This document shows, piece by piece, positions 2 through 13,858 of a stretch of DNA of 24,085 nt. This DNA comes from Acidimicrobiales bacterium. Lineage in GTDB: Bacteria > Actinomycetota > Acidimicrobiia > Acidimicrobiales > JANYDT01. Position 1 is the first letter of the stretch, and each line of letters opens with the position of its first letter. The stretch lies in the NCBI GenBank assembly GCA_025358985.1, contig JANYHQ010000491.1, positions 1-24,085 of the forward strand. Reading direction: 5' to 3'. The notes below the pieces were generated by a model that did not search any database, was not told the origin of the DNA, and worked only from the letters and a program-made list of their open reading frames with translations. A program made the translations under genes and the position numbers.

Positions 2-769
2 GGTTACGCTGCCGGCCTCACAGACGGCCAGGACGCCAGACGGTACTGCCAAGATCGCCTCGCCATGCCATACGGGTATCCGATCACGGTCGCCTACGAC
101 ACCGACACGACGCCGGTCAACATCGCAACGTTCGTCGACTACCACCGTGGATTCAACACGGGATGTGGCCCATACCCGACGTGGGCCTACGGCGACCAGG
201 ACATCATCGAAGAACTCGGCCGGCTCGGCCTCATCACCGGGGCAGTGCGGGCCAACGCTTCATGGTGGTCGAGGTTCTGGTCGAAGCTGTTCAAGTCGAA
301 GTACACGAAGGTGATCCAAGGCACCCAGTCGCCCGACCATACGGTCGACTACAACCGCTGCCTTCTGCCCTTCTACGCCTGGGACGGTACCCCGGCACCA
401 ACCCGAGGAGTGATACCGATGGATGTCGTCACCAACGCCAACGACTGGGACCCAACGCCGGAAGGTGTGCCCCAGCTCGCCGGATACGTCAAGTTCGCAC
501 TACAGTACGGCGGACAGTCGCTGTATCATCTGAGCCCTGTCGAATGGACGGCCGGCGGATCGCAGGCCGGGGTCCCGATGAGTAACGAAGATATCGACGC
601 CCTCGCTGCCAAGCCGTACGGTGCTGCCCCTCCACCGATCGATTACGCTGCGGTCGCCGTCCAGGTCGTCCCGCTACTGCCGGCCACGGTAGACCCGGAG
701 GCTCGCTCGCTCGCCCAGGCCGCACTCGACAAGATCGGTGCCTTGCTTGACAAGCTCCGAGCGGTGTAA
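2..769 (+). CDS. Endolysin, DUF1906/GH25-like glycoside hydrolase (5'-truncated by window edge)
   Basis: Frame is open from base 2: GYAAGLTDGQDARRYCQDRLAMPYGYPITVAYDTD resembles the DUF1906 pattern G.aaG..dA..A......lG.p.g..I..avD.D. C-terminal PPPIDYAAVA helical tail is like actinophage lysins. Ends just before a terminator. Confidence 0.7.
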   Translation, partial: GYAAGLTDGQDARRYCQDRLAMPYGYPITVAYDTDTTPVNIATFVDYHRGFNTGCGPYPTWAYGDQDIIEELGRLGLITGAVRANASWWSRFWSKLFKSKYTKVIQGTQSPDHTVDYNRCLLPFYAWDGTPAPTRGVIPMDVVTNANDWDPTPEGVPQLAGYVKFALQYGGQSLYHLSPVEWTAGGSQAGVPMSNEDIDALAAKPYGAAPPPIDYAAVAVQVVPLLPATVDPEARSLAQAALDKIGALLDKLRAV

Positions 770-810
770 GCTGCCAGTCTCTTTCCTTCATGGCTGTTGG
801 GGAGAACACA

Positions 811-843
811 GAAAGGCCCTGGGGGGTTGCCCCAGGGCCTTTC
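811..843. terminator. Bidirectional intrinsic terminator between convergent late (+) and early (-) units
   Basis: Perfect 14-bp inverted repeat GAAAGGCCCTGGGG / CCCCAGGGCCTTTC with a 5-nt loop. TTTC plus T-rich tail follows on both strands. Confidence 0.85.
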
Positions 844-867
844 GTGTATCCAGAATGACGCAGAACG

Positions 868-1065
868 CTATTTTGAGTGCGTCACCTCCTGGATTGCAAG
901 ATGGAAGTGGTCGTGTCGGGTAGTGACGTCCTGGTCGACGAGTGCGCCACAGCGGCGACAGACGACGGCCATAAAGATGCTTGGCGGACCCGAACCATAC
1001 GTCGGGTCCCATGATTCTGCGTGGAGTTCGATGATTCTGGAGTAGTGGTCGTCGTCAGGTATCAC
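868..1065 (-). CDS. Small putative Zn-binding protein (65 aa; CRRC...H..H)
   Basis: GTG start overlapping the upstream stop (GTGA), AAGGAGGTGA RBS. Motif VCRRCGALVDQDVTTRHDHFH. Confidence 0.65.
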   Translation of the reverse strand: MIPDDDHYSRIIELHAESWDPTYGSGPPSIFMAVVCRRCGALVDQDVTTRHDHFHLAIQEVTHSK

Positions 1066-1265
1066 TGCGTCACCTCCTTGGTCCAGGTTGCGATGTTGGC
1101 CAATGGTGCGTAGGTGGTGACCGACGATTCTGCCGATGCTCTCCAGCATAGCCAGTCGGCGTAGACCCAGGGCCCGGCGGCCACGGTGTACTCTGCCAGC
1201 TCGGCCGGCTGGCCGTTGATCCATTCGATCACCAGTGTTCCCGGTTCGTTCAGCTTACCGCTCAT
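1062..1265 (-). CDS. Hypothetical protein (67 aa, MSGKLNEPG...)
   Basis: ATGA overlap with the upstream stop, GAGGTGA RBS. The start at 1265 is preferred over the 1397 start in the ORF track. Confidence 0.65.
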   Translation of the reverse strand: MSGKLNEPGTLVIEWINGQPAELAEYTVAAGPWVYADWLCWRASAESSVTTYAPLANIATWTKEVTQ

Positions 1266-1423
1266 GCGTTCACCTCGGCCTGCTTCAACTTGAAGTCTCG
1301 GATGAGCCGAGCCCGAAGGCTCGGGCAGTGATGCACTGGCGGGAACGACAGGGCCAACGGGCTGCGGTAGACCGTAGGGCAATGGTCGCAAACCCACACT
1401 TGAATGGCTGCATTGTCTTTCAT
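1262..1423 (-). CDS. Small putative Zn-ribbon protein (53 aa; not in ORF track)
   Basis: MKDNAAIQVWVCDHCPTVYRSPLALSFPPVHHCPSLRARLIRDFKLKQAEVNA. ATGA overlaps at both ends fill the gap between neighbours exactly. CxxC plus HxC. Confidence 0.65.
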   Translation of the reverse strand: MKDNAAIQVWVCDHCPTVYRSPLALSFPPVHHCPSLRARLIRDFKLKQAEVNA

Positions 1424-2097
1424 GACATCACCACTCCGGCGCTGTTCGGGTTGAAGCCCTCGGGCCAGATGGTCGCATAGTTGGCGTCGGCGCCGTCCAG
1501 GTTGGCGCCGTACAGGTTGACGTAGCGCAGGTTGGCGTAGCGCAGGTTGGCGCCGTACAGGTTGGCGCCGTGCAGGTTGGCGTCGTCCAGGTTGGCGTAG
1601 CGCAGGTTGGCGTAGCGCAGGTTGGCGACTGCGCCGGCCCTGACGAGTGCCACAACGTCGAAGCAGTCAACGTCGATCGCCCACGGGACCCGATGCTTGC
1701 CAGTCGTCTTTCCCCTAGCCAGGTCGGTAGGGTAGACGAGGGCATGACCGACACAGTGGGCGAGTGACTCAACGACACCCGTCGTGGCCGCCCCGATACC
1801 AGCATCTGTGACAAGGCATAGCCCGTCGCCTTCCGTCTCGGGACACGAGCCATAGTTCGACTCGTCCCAGTCGGATGCCTCGTGGAGCACCGGGACGTCG
1901 TGGTCGCCGTTGACGATCGGCCAGTAGTAGCCGCCGTAGCTGGTTCCGTCGACTTGGGTCACCTTCCAGCCGACCTTTAGGTCGTGGCCTTTGGTGACCT
2001 CGGGGTAGGCGAGTTGTGCGCCCAGAATGTATTGCTCGTGCCAATAGGTCGAGAATTCTGCGACCTTGGCCCGATGTGATTCTGATTCGGATGTCAT
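1420..2097 (-). CDS. Pentapeptide-repeat protein with an N-terminal domain of unknown function (225 aa)
   Basis: C-terminal A(N/D)Lxx repeats (ANLRY ANLRY ANLDD ANLHG ANLYG...) ending in ATIWPEGF. Start placed at ATG 2097 behind a GAGAGGGAA RBS. Confidence 0.85.
   Translation of the reverse strand: MTSESESHRAKVAEFSTYWHEQYILGAQLAYPEVTKGHDLKVGWKVTQVDGTSYGGYYWPIVNGDHDVPVLHEASDWDESNYGSCPETEGDGLCLVTDAGIGAATTGVVESLAHCVGHALVYPTDLARGKTTGKHRVPWAIDVDCFDVVALVRAGAVANLRYANLRYANLDDANLHGANLYGANLRYANLRYVNLYGANLDGADANYATIWPEGFNPNSAGVVMS
1498..1627. repeat. 15-bp tandem repeat encoding the pentapeptide repeats
   Basis: Nine occurrences of CAGGTTG(G/A)CG at a 15-bp period from 1498 to 1618. Confidence 0.95.
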
Positions 2098-2110
2098 AAT
2101 TTCCCTCTCT

Positions 2111-2190
2111 GGCTGTAGGGTAGATGTGTCTTTGATGGGATATCTTATGCCCACCGTGCGAGCCATAGTTTCCTATGGCTCGAGGCGCTA
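2111..2190 (-). promoter_or_regulatory. Repeated structured early leader, copy E1
   Basis: Minus strand: TAGCGCCT-CGAGCCATAG-GAAA-CTATGGCTCG-CAC-GGTGGG-N10-CCCATC...CATCTACCCTACAGCC, then RBS and ATG 2097. Confidence 0.8.
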
Positions 2191-2249
2191 GGCACCGATA
2201 GTTAAACTCTATTCGCTATGCAACTCGTCGGCATATCAGCGCTCGACAC

Positions 2250-2456
2250 CTATTTCTTCACCACGAACCGAGCGGGGATGAGCGTCACCTCGCGCACATT
2301 GACGATTCGGCACATGAATACTGATGGCTCTCCGTCAGTGATGTGCTCCATGCATTGTGCGTATTGTTTGACTGCATCGGCCTCGGTGTCACAGAACCAC
2401 CGCGTCCTCCCTTGGCGAACGATGTAGGGGTCATCCTTCATTTCTTCCATCCTCAT
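2250..2456 (-). CDS. Hypothetical protein (68 aa, MRMEEMKDDP...)
   Basis: GAGGAG RBS and ATGA overlap with the upstream stop at 2453. Confidence 0.65.
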   Translation of the reverse strand: MRMEEMKDDPYIVRQGRTRWFCDTEADAVKQYAQCMEHITDGEPSVFMCRIVNVREVTLIPARFVVKK

Positions 2457-2587
2457 TGGGGTCTCCTCAGTTTCAGCTTCTTCTCGTTCGGTGTGATAGT
2501 TGCGTGTCGTTCCATGAGCCATCCTACGAACAGTAGAAGGAACCACGGACTGAACAGGATGGCGACCGTGAGCACTGCGGCGATCAT
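2453..2587 (-). CDS. Small single-pass membrane protein (44 aa)
   Basis: GGAGGT RBS, ATGA overlap. MIAAVLTVAILFSPWFLLLFVGWLM hydrophobic segment followed by a basic tail. Confidence 0.6.
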   Translation of the reverse strand: MIAAVLTVAILFSPWFLLLFVGWLMERHATITPNEKKLKLRRPQ

Positions 2588-2751
2588 GCCGGCACCTCCA
2601 GGTCTTCGAGTCGAGCTCGGCCGAGAGGGCACGAAGCCCAGCATTCCCGAAGGTGGCAATCCCGATTGGTTCGCTGAAAGCCAAGGTGACAGACGCCAAC
2701 GTGGTGCGCTGTACGGTAGTCCACGACGTGAACGGTCATCACGGTCACCAT
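2584..2751 (-). CDS. Small Cys/His-rich protein (55 aa)
   Basis: Start overlaps the clamp gene stop (ATGGTGA). MVTVMTVHVVDYRTAHHVGVCHLGFQRTNRDCHLRECWASC... The stop overlaps the next ATG. Confidence 0.55.
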   Translation of the reverse strand: MVTVMTVHVVDYRTAHHVGVCHLGFQRTNRDCHLRECWASCPLGRARLEDLEVPA

Positions 2752-3506
2752 TCGACCGAATGGCGAATAGGCATCTGTAGGGCAACCAGACAGGCGCCGG
2801 CGGCCCGGATCGTGAACACCGCCGGTTTCTGGTCGGTCTCGGCACCGAGCATGACGAGAGGGAAATCTTCCGCCTTGCCGAAACATTTATTGAACGAGGC
2901 GAACCGTGCGAGCAGCTCGGGGTTGAATGCCAGATGGTTACATGCGGCCAAAGTCGGTTCCTGGGTCGGGACAAGCGGGCCCCAGTTCGGGTGGTCACCT
3001 TCAACGATCCGACCGATCGACACTTGATCCTGGTACTGCAACAACCTGTCAGGCGTGCATTCGACCAGCGTGCCGTAAGGGGGTAGATGCTTGCATGAGT
3101 GGGCCGCCAACGTGACCTGATTCGAGGTCGGAAAGGCGCCGGCCCCGAACGGGCCGACAGTCAAAGTGACCAGTGTCGGCACTTTGCCGACCTTCAGTTT
3201 GGTGATATCAGCTTTCTCGATCAGCACGTATGACATGGCGTCATCGGCCAACGTGTTGCGCAGTTGACTCGGCGACATGTTCGAACTTCCGACCAGACCT
3301 AGCTGGTAGGAGTCTGTCGCCACAAAGCCGACAGGCGTGAGACGGCCGGCGTGGTCGAGATTGCCTTTCACGTCGAACACGATCGCTACCGCATTGAGGA
3401 TCGGTTGTGCCGTATCTCCGCTGGCGAACAGTGCTGCCGCAGCGAGTTGGCGACCGTCGAACACGAGGGTCAAACCCTCGGTTTGGCGTGCGTTGAATGA
3501 TTGCAT
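2745..3506 (-). CDS. DNA polymerase III beta sliding-clamp-like protein, domains II+III only (253 aa)
   Basis: Clamp-like motifs in the correct order: FASGDTAQPILNAV, VATDSYQL, GDHPNWGPLVP, AFNPELL, QKPAVF and C-terminal MPIR. Start at ATG 3506 after GAAAGGAAA. Confidence 0.75.
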   Translation of the reverse strand: MQSFNARQTEGLTLVFDGRQLAAAALFASGDTAQPILNAVAIVFDVKGNLDHAGRLTPVGFVATDSYQLGLVGSSNMSPSQLRNTLADDAMSYVLIEKADITKLKVGKVPTLVTLTVGPFGAGAFPTSNQVTLAAHSCKHLPPYGTLVECTPDRLLQYQDQVSIGRIVEGDHPNWGPLVPTQEPTLAACNHLAFNPELLARFASFNKCFGKAEDFPLVMLGAETDQKPAVFTIRAAGACLVALQMPIRHSVEW

Positions 3507-3524
3507 GGGATGGTTTCCTTTCAT

Positions 3525-3593
3525 GGCTGTAGGGTAGATGGGTCAGTGAATGCCCACCGTGCGAGGCCGGATCGCTCCGGCCTCGTGGCGCTA
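3525..3593 (-). promoter_or_regulatory. Repeated structured early leader, copy E2
   Basis: Minus strand: TAGCGCCA-CGAGGCCGGA-GCGA-TCCGGCCTCG-CAC-GGTGGG-N10-CCCATC-TACCCTACAGCC, then RBS. Confidence 0.8.
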
Positions 3594-3607
3594 GGTACTC
3601 ACTCGGT

Positions 3608-4522
3608 TCAGGCGGCCATTAGGACCCTTTCCGCAACCTGGGCGACCAGGTAGTCGCAAGCTGCTTGGGCTTTGCTCGCAACCGTCCAGAGGAGTGCGGG
3701 GGTCTCTTTCAACATGCCGCACCAGTTCTTGAGATACGCAGCGTGATCGGTTCGGGCTACCGTGTCGATACCGATACGGGCGCAAGTGAAGGCTGCGCCA
3801 AGTTCGGCAACGAGCTCTTCAGCTGCGTACTCGTTGTCCCCGAAACGCTTACCGTAGACCCTCGCAAGTCGGTCCTTGTGGCCAGTCCAGTGCGTCAGCT
3901 CGTGTGCCAGTGTTGCGTAGGCGTGCTCGGAAGTGTCGAACTGGTCGAACGCTGGCATGTGCACCTGGTCGGTCGCCGGCTGGTAGAAGGCACGATTACC
4001 GCCCCAGTGCACTTCTGCCGGCACTGCATCAAAGAACGCTTCAGCCTTGGCGTCACGTTCCAGTTGCGTCGGCTGTACGGTAGATGGCTCTTCCGGTGCT
4101 CCGTCGACCTGGTCACGGTTGAAGACCACGAAACCCTTGTAGAAGCCACCAGAAGACCGCAGAGACGTCAATGTGACGTCTTCCCCGGTCTTCTCGTCTT
4201 TGACCGTAATCGTGTCGCCGGTATTCGACGGCTTGGGCGACCAGAAGACCAGGTGCGTACCCTTCTCGCCAGTGCGGACGGTTGCGCCGACTGTCTGCCA
4301 CTGTTTGTAGGTTGCCCATTTCGAGCAGGTGTAGCCTTTCGTCGCACCGAAGTAGGCGAGTACCAGGACGTTTCCGCCCGAATACTCTTTGCCTGTCGTA
4401 GCGTTGCTCGGAAACCCTCCGTCGGCAATCTTGCGCCACGGCATCGCCCAGGTATCCGCACCCTCTTCCATCTGTTCGACCAGCCGCTTCACTACGTCAG
4501 TCATCACCTCATCGGCTCTCAT
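3608..4522 (-). CDS. ardC: ArdC-like antirestriction/ssDNA-binding protein (DUF1738 N-domain plus zincin-like MPTase domain; 304 aa)
   Basis: WAMPW, PSNATTGKEYSGGNVLVL, WATYKQWQ, VRTGEKGT, FVVFNRDQVDG, AFYQP..DQVHMP, HELTHWTGH..RLAR, YAAEELVAELGAAF, HAAYLKNW: the typical ArdC motif series. Start at ATG 4522. Confidence 0.92.
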   Translation of the reverse strand: MRADEVMTDVVKRLVEQMEEGADTWAMPWRKIADGGFPSNATTGKEYSGGNVLVLAYFGATKGYTCSKWATYKQWQTVGATVRTGEKGTHLVFWSPKPSNTGDTITVKDEKTGEDVTLTSLRSSGGFYKGFVVFNRDQVDGAPEEPSTVQPTQLERDAKAEAFFDAVPAEVHWGGNRAFYQPATDQVHMPAFDQFDTSEHAYATLAHELTHWTGHKDRLARVYGKRFGDNEYAAEELVAELGAAFTCARIGIDTVARTDHAAYLKNWCGMLKETPALLWTVASKAQAACDYLVAQVAERVLMAA

Positions 4523-4548
4523 GGTTCTCTCTCCGTTTCGTTTCGTTT

Positions 4549-4621
4549 GACTGTCGGGTAGATGGTGATGCAAGTGCACACCGTGCGAGACAGGGACTAT
4601 CGCCCCTGTCTCGTGGCGCTA
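4549..4621 (-). promoter_or_regulatory. Repeated structured early leader, copy E3
   Basis: Minus strand: TAGCGCCA-CGAGACAGGG-GCGATAGT-CCCTGTCTCG-CAC-GGTGTGC-ACTT-GCATCACC-ATCTACCCGACAGTC, then AAACG repeats and ATG 4522. Confidence 0.8.
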
Positions 4622-4633
4622 TGCGCTAGCGAG

Positions 4634-4732
4634 CTACTCTCTACGGTCTGTCACCTCCACTCTCGGCTCTGTGTCGTCTGAGCCGTCGAACAGTTCAGCG
4701 AACACTTCGCCTACCGTCTCGTGGTAGCTCAT
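4634..4732 (-). CDS. Small acidic peptide (32 aa; not in ORF track)
   Basis: ATGA overlap with the upstream stop. MSYHETVGEVFAELFDGSDDTEPRVEVTDRRE ends just before element E3. Confidence 0.45.
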   Translation of the reverse strand: MSYHETVGEVFAELFDGSDDTEPRVEVTDRRE

Positions 4733-5130
4733 TCTTCGACCTCTGTCATCAGGTCACACTGGAACTCTTCGGCGTAGGCCAAGAACCGCTCGCACACCTT
4801 CGGGAACAGGTCTGCATTCTCACTCTGCCCGTAGGTCGGTACGCCATACTCGACCGCTTCATGCCACGCGCCCACGAACCTCGACAGAGTCTCTAGGACT
4901 TCGGTTGATGTCGGGTCACCAGGTGTGAAGATCAGCTCTCGGGGGTCGGCGAAGGTGTGACCGAAGCCGACACCGTCGGGTACCGAAACCGACAGGTAGT
5001 AAGCCCATCCATCGGCGCCACGGTCGTCGGTATGGCTGGTGAGGCTCACGCTGGCCGTGGCTAGACCATCGGAGCTAGTCCAGAAGGCTGCTTGCGTGGC
5101 CCAGTCTGAAGGGTTGGCGTGTACGCTCAT
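4729..5130 (-). CDS. Acidic hypothetical protein (133 aa), first gene of the early operon
   Basis: ATG 5130 follows an A-rich AAACG-repeat leader and the promoter. About 22 D/E versus 5 K/R by manual count. Confidence 0.75.
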   Translation of the reverse strand: MSVHANPSDWATQAAFWTSSDGLATASVSLTSHTDDRGADGWAYYLSVSVPDGVGFGHTFADPRELIFTPGDPTSTEVLETLSRFVGAWHEAVEYGVPTYGQSENADLFPKVCERFLAYAEEFQCDLMTEVEE

Positions 5131-5178
5131 GGTCGTTTCTCGTTTCGTTCGTTTGGCTGTTGGGTTCTTGCAAGGTTC

Positions 5179-5208
5179 ACTATGCGCTACCCAGTCCAGC
5201 ACTGTCAA
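5179..5208 (-). promoter_or_regulatory. Host sigma70/SigA-type early promoter
   Basis: Minus strand TTGACA (5208-5203), 18-bp spacer, CATAGT (5184-5179); about 50 nt upstream of the first early ATG. Confidence 0.7.
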
Positions 5209-5297
5209 GCAACTTACGTGTGCCAGTCGTCACACGCTTGCCGGCCTGGTGTTGGAAGGTGCGCCTTACGAGCTCCACGATTATGCTAATCGTAACG

Positions 5298-5330
5298 CCC
5301 GTCCCTCCCGCCCTCCGTCCCGCCCTCCCT
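5298..5330. repeat. C-rich mirror repeat / seven-tract G-quadruplex motif (minus strand)
   Basis: TCCCTCCCGCCC-TCCGT-CCCGCCCTCCCT (5302-5330) has exact 12-nt mirror arms. CCC tracts start at 5298, 5303, 5307, 5311, 5319, 5323 and 5327. Confidence 0.85.
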
Positions 5331-5532
5331 TGTCATAGTACCGACCGAGCTCGGAGCTACTAACATAATGTGTTAGGCATACCTACCAACCATGGTGACC
5401 ATGGTCTATCCATGCTCACCAGTGCATGCCAACGAAGCCTGAGCTCTGCCGGCAGTCCTGTGACCAGTCAGGTCAACTGAATAGACCTACAGTGCACCGT
5501 GAGCAGGCACGATGGGACCCACGCCGAGCTCG

Positions 5533-6239
5533 ACACCCGGGTGTATAAATTTGAGTGGAGACTATAATGGGAAGGTCAACCTATTGTCGGCCGGACATTT
5601 CTGTAGGGGGACAGTAACCCGTCTTCCTGTCCGACCTGGTGACCGGGAGTGCTGTACGAAAACTGTGTTGGCCGGCGGTGCCGGCCGGTCAACCGGTTTT
5701 GGGGGCCGTAAACCGTTTCTCGAGAAACGGGTCCTTAAATGACTTGCCCCGAGAGGGGCAAGTTGGACGGCCGGAGACGGCCGTGTGGTAGTGCACTGTG
5801 TACTTTACTTTAATCGGGAATACTTTACTGTAATTAGGTGAACTTTCCGCCTGGCGGCTCCAAGTTCACCGTCTAGGGGGACGTCTCCGTCCGGAGACGG
5901 ACCTATTTCCCCCCCACCGGGATGCTCACTACTCCGGTCCCGCTAGGTTTAGCGTCTCAGCGTTCGACGTTTTTCTGTGTACTCCACCAGGCCACCAAGG
6001 CCTGGGTTGTGTAGGGCCGGTCGGTATCGCACCTGTGGGCTCGCCTACACTTGAACACACCGTCTGACGGCTGAACTCCCGGTGGTAAGCCGGTGGGAGG
6101 TTCACACTCCACACCTCGTGTCACGCTGAGGTTGCGCCCCTTGCGGGGTGGTTGAATTGTCCTACATAGACCCCCGGGAGCGCCCGAGCCTCGCCGTGCG
6201 GGGCTGGGACCCGGGCTCTGCTCCCGGGACCTATGTAGG
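5533..6239. other. Non-coding block packed with inverted repeats (candidate origin/packaging region or structured RNA)
   Basis: At least 11 palindromes or stems, e.g. 5533-5544, 5670-5686, 5713-5730, 5742-5763, 5767-5784, 5837-5870, 5889-5902, 6009-6050, 6072-6104, 6161-6239. No convincing ORF with an RBS. Confidence 0.6.
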
Positions 6240-6275
6240 GAATCATGCCATCTCTTCCGGAGGGCTCCTGTGTCA

Positions 6276-6282
6276 GGGGGTC
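6276..6282 (+). promoter_or_regulatory. GGGGGTC late-unit motif upstream of terminase
   Basis: GGGGGTC followed by TGTAGGAG and ATG 6291. The same motif precedes six other late units. Confidence 0.5.
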
Positions 6283-6290
6283 TGTAGGAG

Positions 6291-8168
6291 ATGCCTACCC
6301 GAAAGCCTGCCGCTGACAGGGCGCCCGACAAGTCGTGGGCGTCGAAGCCGAAAGAGAACCGTTTCCGGGAAGCGTTGAAACGGATCGACGCCGGTATGCC
6401 GGTGGCGACCGCTGCCCGTTCGATGGGCTTGTCCCGTTCCCAGGTGAACGTCCGGCTGAAAGTCGCTCGGGATGAGAGGGCGGCAGCCCAGGGGCGTGCC
6501 GCCGACAGTCTGGCCGGCAAGGCCAACTTGACGCAGAACCGGACGGCCGGGCCGCTCGACGACCAGAAGATGCGGGTGTTGCCGTTCGACGACTTCGACC
6601 AGAAGTATTTCGGGACGCTGGTCTGCCCGGATTGTGGCGTCCACCACGAGACCCCCGGGTTTCACACCGAGATCGCCGACGCAGTGCTCGACCCTGACAT
6701 CAAGCGTCTGCTCATCAACATCCCTCCGTACCACAGCAAGTCGGCACTGGTGACCGTCAAGTCGACGGTGTACGAGCTGGTCTGCAACCCGAACGGCCGG
6801 CACCTCATCGTCTCGGCTTCGCAAGACTTTGCGAAGGCCTTCCTCTATTCGATCAAACAGTGGCTGACCAACCCCGAACTGTACGAGGGTGCCGGCGGCA
6901 ACCTGATCGACGACTACGGCCCGTTCTTCAATGACACGTCGACCGACACGCAGACCAAGATGTACATCGCTGGGCGTATGAGCTCGGAGAAGGACCCGTC
7001 CGTTCTCGCTCTCGGCATCGGCAACCAGATCTACGGTCGGCGTGCCGACCGGATCATCTTCGACGACATTGCCACGCTGGAGAACCAGCGCAACCCCGAG
7101 ATGGTCATCAAGCAGATGGAGTGGATCGACAAGCAGGCGCTGAGCCGTATCGGCCGCACCGGCAAGGCGATCTGGGTCGGCACCCGCATCCGTCCCGGCG
7201 ACATCTACACCGGGCTGCAGGACCGCACCGGGTACAAGATCATCAAGTACCCGTGCATCCTCGACGAGGAAGCCGAGTCGACCCTCTGGCCGGACCATTT
7301 CCCGTACCCGGACGCCTCGCTGCGTCGAGCCGAGATGAGGCCGGAAGAGTGGCAGCTCGTCTACCAGAACGTTGACACGCCCGGGCTCGGCTCCTCCTTC
7401 CCGGCCGAAGTGATCGAAGAGTGCAAAGACCGGGAGCACGTCATCGGACAGGTTGACCCGGCATGGAAGCTGTTTGTCGGCATCGACCCGGCGGGCGGCG
7501 GGAAGCAGTCGGGCTTCACGGCGCTGATCCTGCTCGGCTGGGACCGTGACAAGCAGGAGCTCCACCTCGTCGACATGGTCAACGCCCGGGCGTTGAAGGC
7601 CTACCAGTTGAAAGACCAGATCCTCGACTGGGCGGCGTCGTACAACCTGACGGAGATCCGGGTCGAGTCGAACGGTGTCCAGTCGCAGCTCGTCCAGTAC
7701 AACCAGGAGCTGATCAACCCGTTGACACAGCGGGGGATCAGGGTCGTGTCGCATCACACTCACTCGAACAAGTGGGACGCCCAGTTCGGTGTCGAGGCGA
7801 TCGCCCCGTGGTTCTACAACCAGAAGGTCTTCCTGCCGTGGGGGAACGCCGACTCGCAGAGGCGGGTCCAGACGTTGATCGAGCAGTTGGCCGGCTTCCC
7901 GATGGCGGAACGCTCCGACCTGGTGATGGCGTTCTGGTTCGCCTGGCTCGGCATTAAAGAATCGCAGGCCCGTCAGCCCGGGCCGATGTACGAGAACCGG
8001 AAGATGCCGGCCTTCGTCCGCAATCGGCGCCGCATCGCCGACATGCGCACCGGCAAGCTGTGGTCCCCGACCGACCCGAGCCGACCAGACTTCGGTCGCA
8101 TCGACGACACTCGACCGAGGAACGTCGCCAGGTTGGTGAACGTCCCGGGCCAGGTGAACACCTGGTGA
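6291..8168 (+). CDS. terL: Terminase large subunit with N-terminal HTH (625 aa)
   Basis: Walker A-like INIPPYHSKS, Walker B RADRIIFDD, coupling motif WVGTR, RNase H-like nuclease FVGIDPAGGG ... SDLVMAFWF. N-terminal HTH-like MPVATAARSMGLSRSQVNVRLK. Confidence 0.93.
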   Translation: MPTRKPAADRAPDKSWASKPKENRFREALKRIDAGMPVATAARSMGLSRSQVNVRLKVARDERAAAQGRAADSLAGKANLTQNRTAGPLDDQKMRVLPFDDFDQKYFGTLVCPDCGVHHETPGFHTEIADAVLDPDIKRLLINIPPYHSKSALVTVKSTVYELVCNPNGRHLIVSASQDFAKAFLYSIKQWLTNPELYEGAGGNLIDDYGPFFNDTSTDTQTKMYIAGRMSSEKDPSVLALGIGNQIYGRRADRIIFDDIATLENQRNPEMVIKQMEWIDKQALSRIGRTGKAIWVGTRIRPGDIYTGLQDRTGYKIIKYPCILDEEAESTLWPDHFPYPDASLRRAEMRPEEWQLVYQNVDTPGLGSSFPAEVIEECKDREHVIGQVDPAWKLFVGIDPAGGGKQSGFTALILLGWDRDKQELHLVDMVNARALKAYQLKDQILDWAASYNLTEIRVESNGVQSQLVQYNQELINPLTQRGIRVVSHHTHSNKWDAQFGVEAIAPWFYNQKVFLPWGNADSQRRVQTLIEQLAGFPMAERSDLVMAFWFAWLGIKESQARQPGPMYENRKMPAFVRNRRRIADMRTGKLWSPTDPSRPDFGRIDDTRPRNVARLVNVPGQVNTW

Positions 8169-13777: not shown

Positions 13778-13850
13778 AGCGCAGTGGAGCAGTGGTCAGC
13801 TCGGCGGGCTCATAACCCGTAGGTCCCCGGTTCGAATCCGGGTTGCGCCA
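13778..13850 (+). tRNA. tRNA-fMet (initiator, anticodon CAT)
   Basis: Full cloverleaf: acceptor AGCGCAG/TTGCGCC with a 1:72 mismatch, D-stem GAGC/GCTC (A11:U24), anticodon arm GCGGG-CTCATAA-CCCGT (three consecutive G-C pairs), T-arm CCCGG-TTCGAAT-CCGGG, discriminator A. The 3' end reads CCG, so CCA is not fully encoded. Confidence 0.95.
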
Positions 13851-13858
13851 CCGGACGT

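Follow-up and report, generated by a model that had tools for sequence, protein, structure and literature searches.

The window analysed here is the entire 24,085-base contig JANYHQ010000491.1 of a 3.46-Mb metagenome bin (a 745-contig assembly assigned to an Acidimicrobiales bacterium), and it was found to resemble part of a phage. A terminase gene is located at positions 6291-8168 on the plus strand and is followed by large structural genes, with a block of small early genes lying on the minus strand, among them an ArdC-like anti-restriction gene and one for a protein with pentapeptide repeats. Intergenic regions of this block carry three copies (E1, E2 and E3) of a repeated RNA element of approximately 65-75 nucleotides (nt), the letters of which read on the minus strand as an earlier note on this DNA had claimed. 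The features of the locus are as follows.

5179-5208, minus strand: sigma-70-like promoter (TTGACA-18-CATAGT, 10/12), a consensus match only
4561-4631, minus strand: copy E3, before the ArdC-like gene (covariance model 66.4 bits, E 8e-18; fold; sequence)
3608-4522, minus strand: ArdC-like anti-restriction/zincin peptidase gene, downstream of E3 (PF08401, 5.8e-28; PF18818, 1.6e-43)
3537-3603, minus strand: copy E2, before the gene of a 253-amino-acid (aa) protein (covariance model 70.8 bits; fold)
2745-3506, minus strand: gene of the 253-aa protein, downstream of E2 (no Pfam hit; weak PHROG matches)
2134-2200, minus strand: copy E1, before the pentapeptide-repeat gene (covariance model 71.2 bits)
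1420-2097, minus strand: pentapeptide-repeat protein gene, downstream of E1 (PF00805, 6.3e-18)
811-843, minus strand: canonical intrinsic terminator closing the minus-strand operon (14-bp stem followed by a U-rich tail)

The match at 5179-5208 is the sole good promoter match preceding the minus-strand gene block. Between it and the terminator at 811-843, the minus strand was found to contain one weaker promoter-like match (2392-2363, 9/12), situated within a gene, and a scan of the same interval gave no terminator-like site. As one promoter and one terminator flank the three copies, these are most simply read as lying inside a single predicted polycistronic early transcript of approximately 4.4 kb. 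The first early gene (5130-4729), downstream of the sigma-70-like promoter, has no hairpin element, its leader containing only a box, ACCCAACAGCC, and the element consequently does not head each early block as had been proposed.

With a covariance model of the element, the window gave three copies and no more, scoring 66-71 bits (E approximately 1e-18), with the next match at 8.9 bits, and no copy was found elsewhere in the assembly. The sole hit in the window at the gathering score of Rfam 15 was a tRNA at 13778-13850, and allowing E values up to 10 over positions 2000-4700 gave only two noise matches (mir-2232 and sR55). The element thus matches no Rfam 15 family, which supports the earlier note on this point as far as Rfam is concerned.

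Structure and covariation of the element

Folding of each copy with RNAfold resulted in a single long hairpin, in which the 5' flank, including TAGCG, pairs with CGGUGNNN located after stem 1, with z-scores for stability relative to shuffled sequence of -3.75 to -4.99 among the three copies. The hairpin consists of 20-22 base pairs (bp) and is interrupted. Its lower helix, the strands of which are the 5' flank and GGUGNNN, begins with 7-8 pairs that vary and covary and continues with A-U, a G.G mismatch, C-G and G-C (9 pairs with one mismatch). Above this are a conserved 3x2 internal loop, with CCN opposite CA, and a conserved 4-bp box (YGAG/CUCR), of which the G-C, A-U and G-C pairs were never found to vary. 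The upper part, stem 1, is variable, measuring 9-12 bp overall, a range that is only partly a finding because the search pattern admitted stems of roughly 6-15 bp, and it is closed by an unconserved loop of 3-8 nt. The consensus can thus be given as 7-8 variable nt, (U/C)AGCGCC, N, YGAG, a variable stem-loop, CUCR, CA, CGGUG and further variable nt, with the near-invariant core AGCGCC-N-YGAG...CUCR-CA-CGGUG accounting for approximately 20 nt.

Stem 1 of E3 spans 4586-4613 (12 bp, loop GAUA), with the lower helix of this copy formed by 4620-4626 and 4617-4618 pairing with 4574-4583. The corresponding stem is located at 3562-3585 in E2 (10 bp, loop GCGA) and at 2159-2182 in E1 (10 bp, loop GAAA). 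As described previously, the inner pairs of stem 1 vary in sequence among the three copies yet pair in all of them. The GNRA tetraloops reported in the earlier note are present in two of the three loops of the window but were not found to be a feature of the family, in which they occur in only 6 of 24 copies.

Relatives of the window were reached via terminase proteins, and one of these (L042, 80% terminase identity) was found to carry two copies of the element, before different genes. E1 shares 81% identity over 69 nt with an L042 copy, with the flanking genes being different. One L042 copy has the base of stem 1 altered from CGAG/CUCG to UGAG/CUCA, and the other has TAGCG...CACGG altered to TAGUG...CACAG, both changes being compensatory. 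Searches with a pattern of the conserved core then gave copies in five IMG/VR contigs, with a sixth copy obtained using the covariance model, as well as 18 more strong matches in metagenome contigs and one copy in a Solirubrobacterales bin. In total, 24 distinct copies are known.

Alignment of 10 copies with MAFFT, made without the use of structure, showed 96.5% of cells to be paired, with both-side changes in 10 of 17 pairs, compared to 27-45% paired in a control in which the partner strand was slid. When 25 copies were aligned to the model, 96.7% of cells were paired (26-45% in the equivalent control) and compensatory changes were identified in 12 of the 17 pairs, bearing out that the structure is conserved in other phages. 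The lower helix had no role in choosing the sequences, and in the 25-copy alignment it was 94.7% paired with a compensatory change in 6 of its 9 pairs. The 5' strand of this helix was also found to pair better with its own partner (-8.6 kcal/mol) than with the partners of other copies (-4.0 kcal/mol), a result matched by none of 5000 permutations. G-U pairs outnumber A-C mismatches (32 versus 11), and in 17 of 24 copies the sense strand gave the more stable stem 1. These results support the proposal that this is a cis-acting RNA element selected for its structure on the transcribed strand.

The double-hairpin layout originally described for the element corresponds to the less stable of two folds, the minimum-energy fold being the single long hairpin. 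The second hairpin of that layout, hairpin 2 (4564-4582 in E3, 3537-3558 in E2 and 2134-2155 in E1), competes with the lower helix for their common GGUG strand, making the two folds mutually exclusive. The long hairpin was favoured in 24 of 24 copies, by a mean of 4.3 kcal/mol, and would form first during transcription, with the two-hairpin fold forming second. Hairpin 2 is nevertheless conserved. It was assessed by folding, permutation and shuffling of individual copies and not by column-wise pair counts, its variable loops being out of register. Its first base is G53 in 22 of 24 copies, and its fifth pair is represented by several types of base pair. Its fit to its own 3' strand (-9.6 kcal/mol, compared to -7.6 kcal/mol for the strands of other copies) was equalled in none of 5000 permutations, and against shuffled tails its energy was -6.4 versus -1.5 kcal/mol, with 17 of 24 copies at or under the 5% level. 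The predicted accessibility of the region from the Shine-Dalgarno sequence to the AUG was equal in both folds (0.60 versus 0.59). Hairpin 2 is therefore not gating the ribosome-binding site, and a switch masking this site was rejected. The conservation of a hairpin that is the less stable alternative points to hairpin 2 having been selected to form when the 5' strand of the lower helix is missing or otherwise engaged.

Distribution of the element among phages

Each of the 25 matches was found to face in the sense direction and to precede a Shine-Dalgarno sequence and start codon. In the window the start codon lies 53-61 nt past position C52, and over the family this spacing is 21-61 nt for 24 of the 25 copies, with one exception at 107 nt. 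The downstream genes are diverse, encoding ArdC-like and pentapeptide proteins, an AAA ATPase, an integrase, helix-turn-helix proteins and proteins without an assigned function. The larger carrier contigs hold one or two copies each (one in the case of a complete 48-kb genome with terminal repeats) and gave 0-2 weak protein matches per pair, with no protein being common to all. Comparison of the window with the early region of L042 showed nucleotide similarity to be confined to the element and two short non-coding patches. The element thus belongs to phages and either moves between unrelated backbones or is retained across them, with no protein evident that travels along with it. As its carriers share almost no proteins, a universal host factor is favoured over a phage-encoded partner.

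Among bacterial and archaeal species genomes, the exact pattern with TAG gave 0 hits and a looser pattern gave 43, of which only one was a true copy (L185, on a 4-kb contig of a Solirubrobacterales bin). No element was found in 150 genomes of the order of the binned host, for which only 33 candidates were scored per genome. A megablast search of 12 kb against GenBank phages gave no match, and IMG/VR terminase relatives, only 23-29% identical, were without the element. No copy was identified in the 21.8 kb read of L039, a 47.7-kb ENA contig that is the closest full-length relative (77% terminase identity). The structural proteins of L039 are 66-77% identical to those of the window and its early region is entirely different, including a fragment of an rve_3 transposase. 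In a group of related phages (L098, L143, L084, L111, L086 and L153), the element is present on both sides of a gene for a conserved 300-aa uncharacterised protein, which begins MSNRKR...LRINRWGAK in the L098 group and is preceded by a 65-aa gene.

A candidate processing signal and its alternatives

Our preferred reading of the element, at a probability of roughly 0.45, is a T7-like RNase III processing signal that would punctuate a polycistronic early message. Of the three roles put forward in the earlier note, a processing or stabilising site fits best. Under this proposal, host RNase III, or an enzyme of the same double-strand specificity, would cut in or beside the CCN/CA internal loop, so that stem 1 would close the upstream message as a protective 3' hairpin. 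Once freed from the lower helix, the CGGUGNNN strand would pair with the CACC-type strand downstream to give hairpin 2, which, at 1-3 nt from the predicted new 5' end, would shield the monophosphate from 5'-dependent RNases (RNase E, RNase J), with the ribosome-binding site a further 33-61 nt on remaining open. Hairpins near a 5' end are established as protecting against RNases that depend on that end.

An ideal RNase III substrate has 22 bp, about two helical turns, and internal loops result in single-strand cuts that leave 3' hairpins as determinants of stability (PMC3867540). The element was found to be an irregular hairpin of approximately 20-22 bp, and with an upper stem of 9-12 bp and a lower helix of approximately 10 positions, its internal loop is near the centre of about two helical turns. 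Its copies are intercistronic, just before the next ribosome-binding site of the predicted transcript, and all 20 relatives of the binned host that were examined carry RNase III genes.

Phages T7 and SP82 provide the textbook examples of intercistronic processing signals. The T7 sites (R0.3, R0.5, R1, R1.1 and R1.3) are likewise repeated between the cistrons of one long early transcript, upstream of the next ribosome-binding site. They too are irregular hairpins, spanning about two helical turns around an internal loop at the centre, and their flanks and loop region are conserved while the upper stem varies but stays paired. Early sites of the Bacillus phages SP82/SPO1 are of the same kind. 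When the five early intercistronic regions of T7 were folded, using cleavage coordinates that are not annotated in the sequence record, the same kind of fold was obtained, with variable upper stems of 9-13 bp just before the next ribosome-binding site and with conserved flanks (CUCAAGG...CCUUUAUGAU) in 4 of the 5 regions. In both T7 sites and the element, the upper hairpin would be expected to persist as a 3' stabiliser (PMC3867540). There are also differences. No sequence similarity was found, the best score of the model over T7 positions 700-6700 being 6.9 bits (E 0.65), and the core AGCGCC-N-YGAG/CUCR-CA-CGGUG is the element's own. Moreover, the element is spread across unrelated phages, whereas T7 sites are confined to one lineage, and the 3' strand of its lower helix is used again in a conserved alternative hairpin, a feature for which T7 sites were not examined.

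Several points weigh against a processing signal. The bin to which the window belongs, 79% complete, gave no RNase III gene, and the binning of a phage contig is not proof of its host. No RNA sequencing runs are listed for the element sequence, and we therefore purely infer the cleavage, as well as the enzyme and the stabilising effect. The approximately 20 near-invariant nt near the internal loop exceed the known needs of bacterial RNase III and might reflect recognition by a sequence-specific protein, or a catalytic core, instead. Some carriers (such as L073) hold a single copy seemingly straight after the promoter region, where separation of cistrons is not needed, although R0.3 of T7 is similarly placed. 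Furthermore, many of the 24 copies are from related contigs, and the pair counts given above therefore overstate the number of independent events.

One alternative, which we consider unlikely, is that the core binds a host protein or RNA polymerase, acting as an antiterminator similar to put of phage HK022, an anti-pausing RNA or another protein-bound leader. Sequence-specific recognition is suggested by the near-invariant nt, including the invariant YGAG/CUCR pairs, and presence in many unrelated phages is as would be expected of an RNA directed at the host. The put sites are also cis-acting RNAs of the phage early region, approximately 70 nt in size with two stem-loops, located downstream of early promoters (PMC9378689), and the element resembles them in size and in the two stem-loops possible. 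However, put occurs twice per genome (putL, putR) and needs both of its stems together, whereas the two-hairpin fold of the element is a minor one that would form second in transcription, and put is not characterised by mutually exclusive pairing. The role of put-like antiterminator raised in the earlier note is further opposed by the position of the copies, which lie between genes deep in the operon and are absent from the promoter-proximal leader of the window, with no internal terminator-like site to override. The covariance model gave nothing against the whole HK022 genome at E values up to 1, and neither sequence nor structure was found to be similar. A lambda-type nut site, which combines boxA with a short boxB hairpin bearing a conserved GNRA-like loop, is no better matched, the loops of the element being unconserved and no boxA-like sequence being seen. 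Hairpin promoters for a virion RNA polymerase of the N4 or crAss type were considered and rejected, as the 1754-aa protein of the window lacks DFDxD and G-U pairs are found on the sense strand, not the template. A more novel and distinctly unlikely reading is that the core is not an RNase III site but an active centre or docking site, either of a minimal self-cleaving RNA or of a binder of RNA polymerase or the ribosome, making the element a horizontally spread, portable module that cuts or binds and then refolds. Should the processing model fail, the core would point to an RNA-protein or catalytic interaction of unknown kind.

We view as improbable a translation-coupled switch, in which a ribosome ending the upstream gene would cover the 5' strand of the lower helix, with the flip to the two-hairpin fold altering the fate of the downstream cistron. 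Both folds covary, and many upstream frames end inside or a few nt from this strand, with the stops before E2 and E3 being 4-5 nt away. However, the motif itself contains TAG, meaning that stop-to-stop frames end there by construction, the stop upstream of E1 is approximately 50 nt away, and the equal accessibility reported above leaves no evident output. Cutting at the conserved internal loop by a self-cleaving ribozyme of an undescribed class would agree with the high conservation around that loop across unrelated phages and with the post-cleavage state implied by hairpin 2, and small ribozymes are common in phage intergenic regions. Nonetheless, it is very improbable given that the fold, one hairpin interrupted by a 3x2 loop and a mismatch, in which no multi-helix junction or pseudoknot was seen, offers very little for a catalytic core, and that no known ribozyme family matched even at E values up to 10. 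Little credence is also given to an intrinsic terminator or attenuator without a U-tract, perhaps followed by a phage-specific promoter, that would make each block its own transcription unit. The intergenic hairpins are strong and GC-rich (stem energies of -13 to -25 kcal/mol per copy), and U-less terminators have reportedly been proposed for actinobacteria and phage phiC31. In the window, though, no copy is followed by a U-tract, the next bases being CACGGUG in all copies, and none of the three was listed by the terminator scan, while the operon itself closes with a U-tailed terminator of the canonical type. The earlier statement that these are not ordinary terminators therefore stands. Conserved flanks and a covarying lower helix would also be left unexplained, neither the element nor the sequence following it gave a promoter consensus, and one report (PMC3993855) describes mycobacterial RNA polymerase as requiring a U-tract. 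Finally, a role at the DNA level, as a recombination hot spot or cassette boundary for the swapping of early genes, seems hardly more credible. It would account for the element being the main stretch over which the early regions of the window and L042 are alike at the nucleotide level, for its location before unrelated genes in unrelated phages, and for an apparent relic of its 3' part past the operon terminator (792-805). The PeSL repeats of T4-type phages, promoter-stem-loop modules bordering small early cassettes, are said to favour shuffling in this way, but PeSL carries an early promoter. A recombination site needs no RNA-pairing covariation, sense-only G-U pairs, fixed orientation or fixed distance to the ribosome-binding site, and shuffling is more likely to be a side effect. 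For the cassette shuffling envisaged in the earlier note, the support, an island of similarity between relatives with different early genes, is circumstantial.

The processing signal, if this reading is true, would be a compact, portable module that turns one transcript into several stable, separately translated messages, an aid to the annotation of phage early regions and a part for synthetic operons in high-GC bacteria. To our knowledge, processing signals have hardly been catalogued for most phages, which are uncultured. Elements of this kind are familiar from T7 and SP82; the sequence family described here is absent from Rfam, with the 10,006 viral RNA candidates of PMC10690425 lying outside this comparison. 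No description was found of a core conserved across unrelated phages or of a conserved alternative fold. It is this combination that gives the element its interest, as a strongly covarying structure and a 20-nt core are kept across phages with almost no common genes, together with an alternative fold that makes sense only once the RNA is cut or the 5' strand removed.

Leader boxes and other features of the window

The 16-nt tail CATCTACCCKACAGYC, which had been included in the element by the earlier note, belongs instead to a separate, lineage-specific leader box that is absent from most family members. It occurs exactly three times on the minus strand, compared to 0.53 occurrences expected by chance, and was not found elsewhere in the assembly. 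Its use as a signature of the family was rejected, as the 29 single exact hits obtained in IMG/VR were all without hairpin context and are therefore attributed to chance. The box, with the consensus (A/U/C)CCCNACAGYC, is located 13-26 nt before many early start codons, with or without the hairpin, and is a separate module. Its occurrences in the window and in two relatives are given below.

5155-5165, minus strand: ACCCAACAGCC, first early gene, whose 5' leader lacks the hairpin
4549-4559, minus strand: ACCCGACAGTC, between E3 and the ribosome-binding site, lineage-specific
3525-3535, minus strand: ACCCTACAGCC, between E2 and the ribosome-binding site
2111-2121, minus strand: ACCCTACAGCC, between E1 and the ribosome-binding site
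L042, 2283-2293, 1499-1509 and 509-519, minus strand: box
L039, 861-871 and 1660-1670, minus strand, and 4081-4091 and 4404-4414, plus strand: box

The presence of a box together with a hairpin is similar in its two-module logic to the SAS/ESAS of Cluster K mycobacteriophages (PMC3203893). SAS is a box before many starts of non-structural genes, of which about half have an inverted repeat upstream, and its function is unknown (PMC3203893). It is a 13-bp sequence, GGGATAGGAGCCC, located 3-8 bp from the start codon, and thus differs from the box of the window in both sequence and distance; the arms of ESAS (17 bp) are conserved in sequence, whereas the stems of the element vary and covary (PMC3203893). 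A half-motif, CGCACGGTG, in the first leader of L042 was dismissed as a coincidence, being inside a small zinc-ribbon open reading frame.

Two further sequences related to these modules were identified on the minus strand. Within the coding sequence of the ArdC-like gene, positions 4071-4086 contain a copy of the tail with one mismatch (CATCTACCGTACAGCC) that lacks an upstream hairpin and may be due to chance or be a recombination scar. Just past the operon terminator, positions 792-805 contain CCCCAACAGCCATGAAGGAAAG, 83% identical to the 3' part of E2 (ACAGCCATGAAAGGAAAC), which suggests a relic of past recombination at these modules.

Among the early gene products, the C-terminal third of the 253-aa protein gave a weak match to PHROG families labelled as RusA-like resolvase (4.7e-8). 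The repeats of the pentapeptide protein are encoded by eight tandem 15-nt repeats at 1471-1642 on the minus strand, and this early protein, whose gene is beside the ArdC-like anti-restriction gene, may be a DNA mimic. Approximately 1.1 kb of non-coding sequence (5210-6290) extends from the early promoter to the terminase gene and contains many short direct and inverted repeats. Since the contigs of relatives L041 and L043 stop near the same point, 940-980 bases upstream of their own terminase gene, a genome end or packaging site may be situated in this region. Within the structural module, a tRNA-Met (CAT) gene was identified at 13778-13852 on the plus strand, directly before the gene of the 1754-aa protein.

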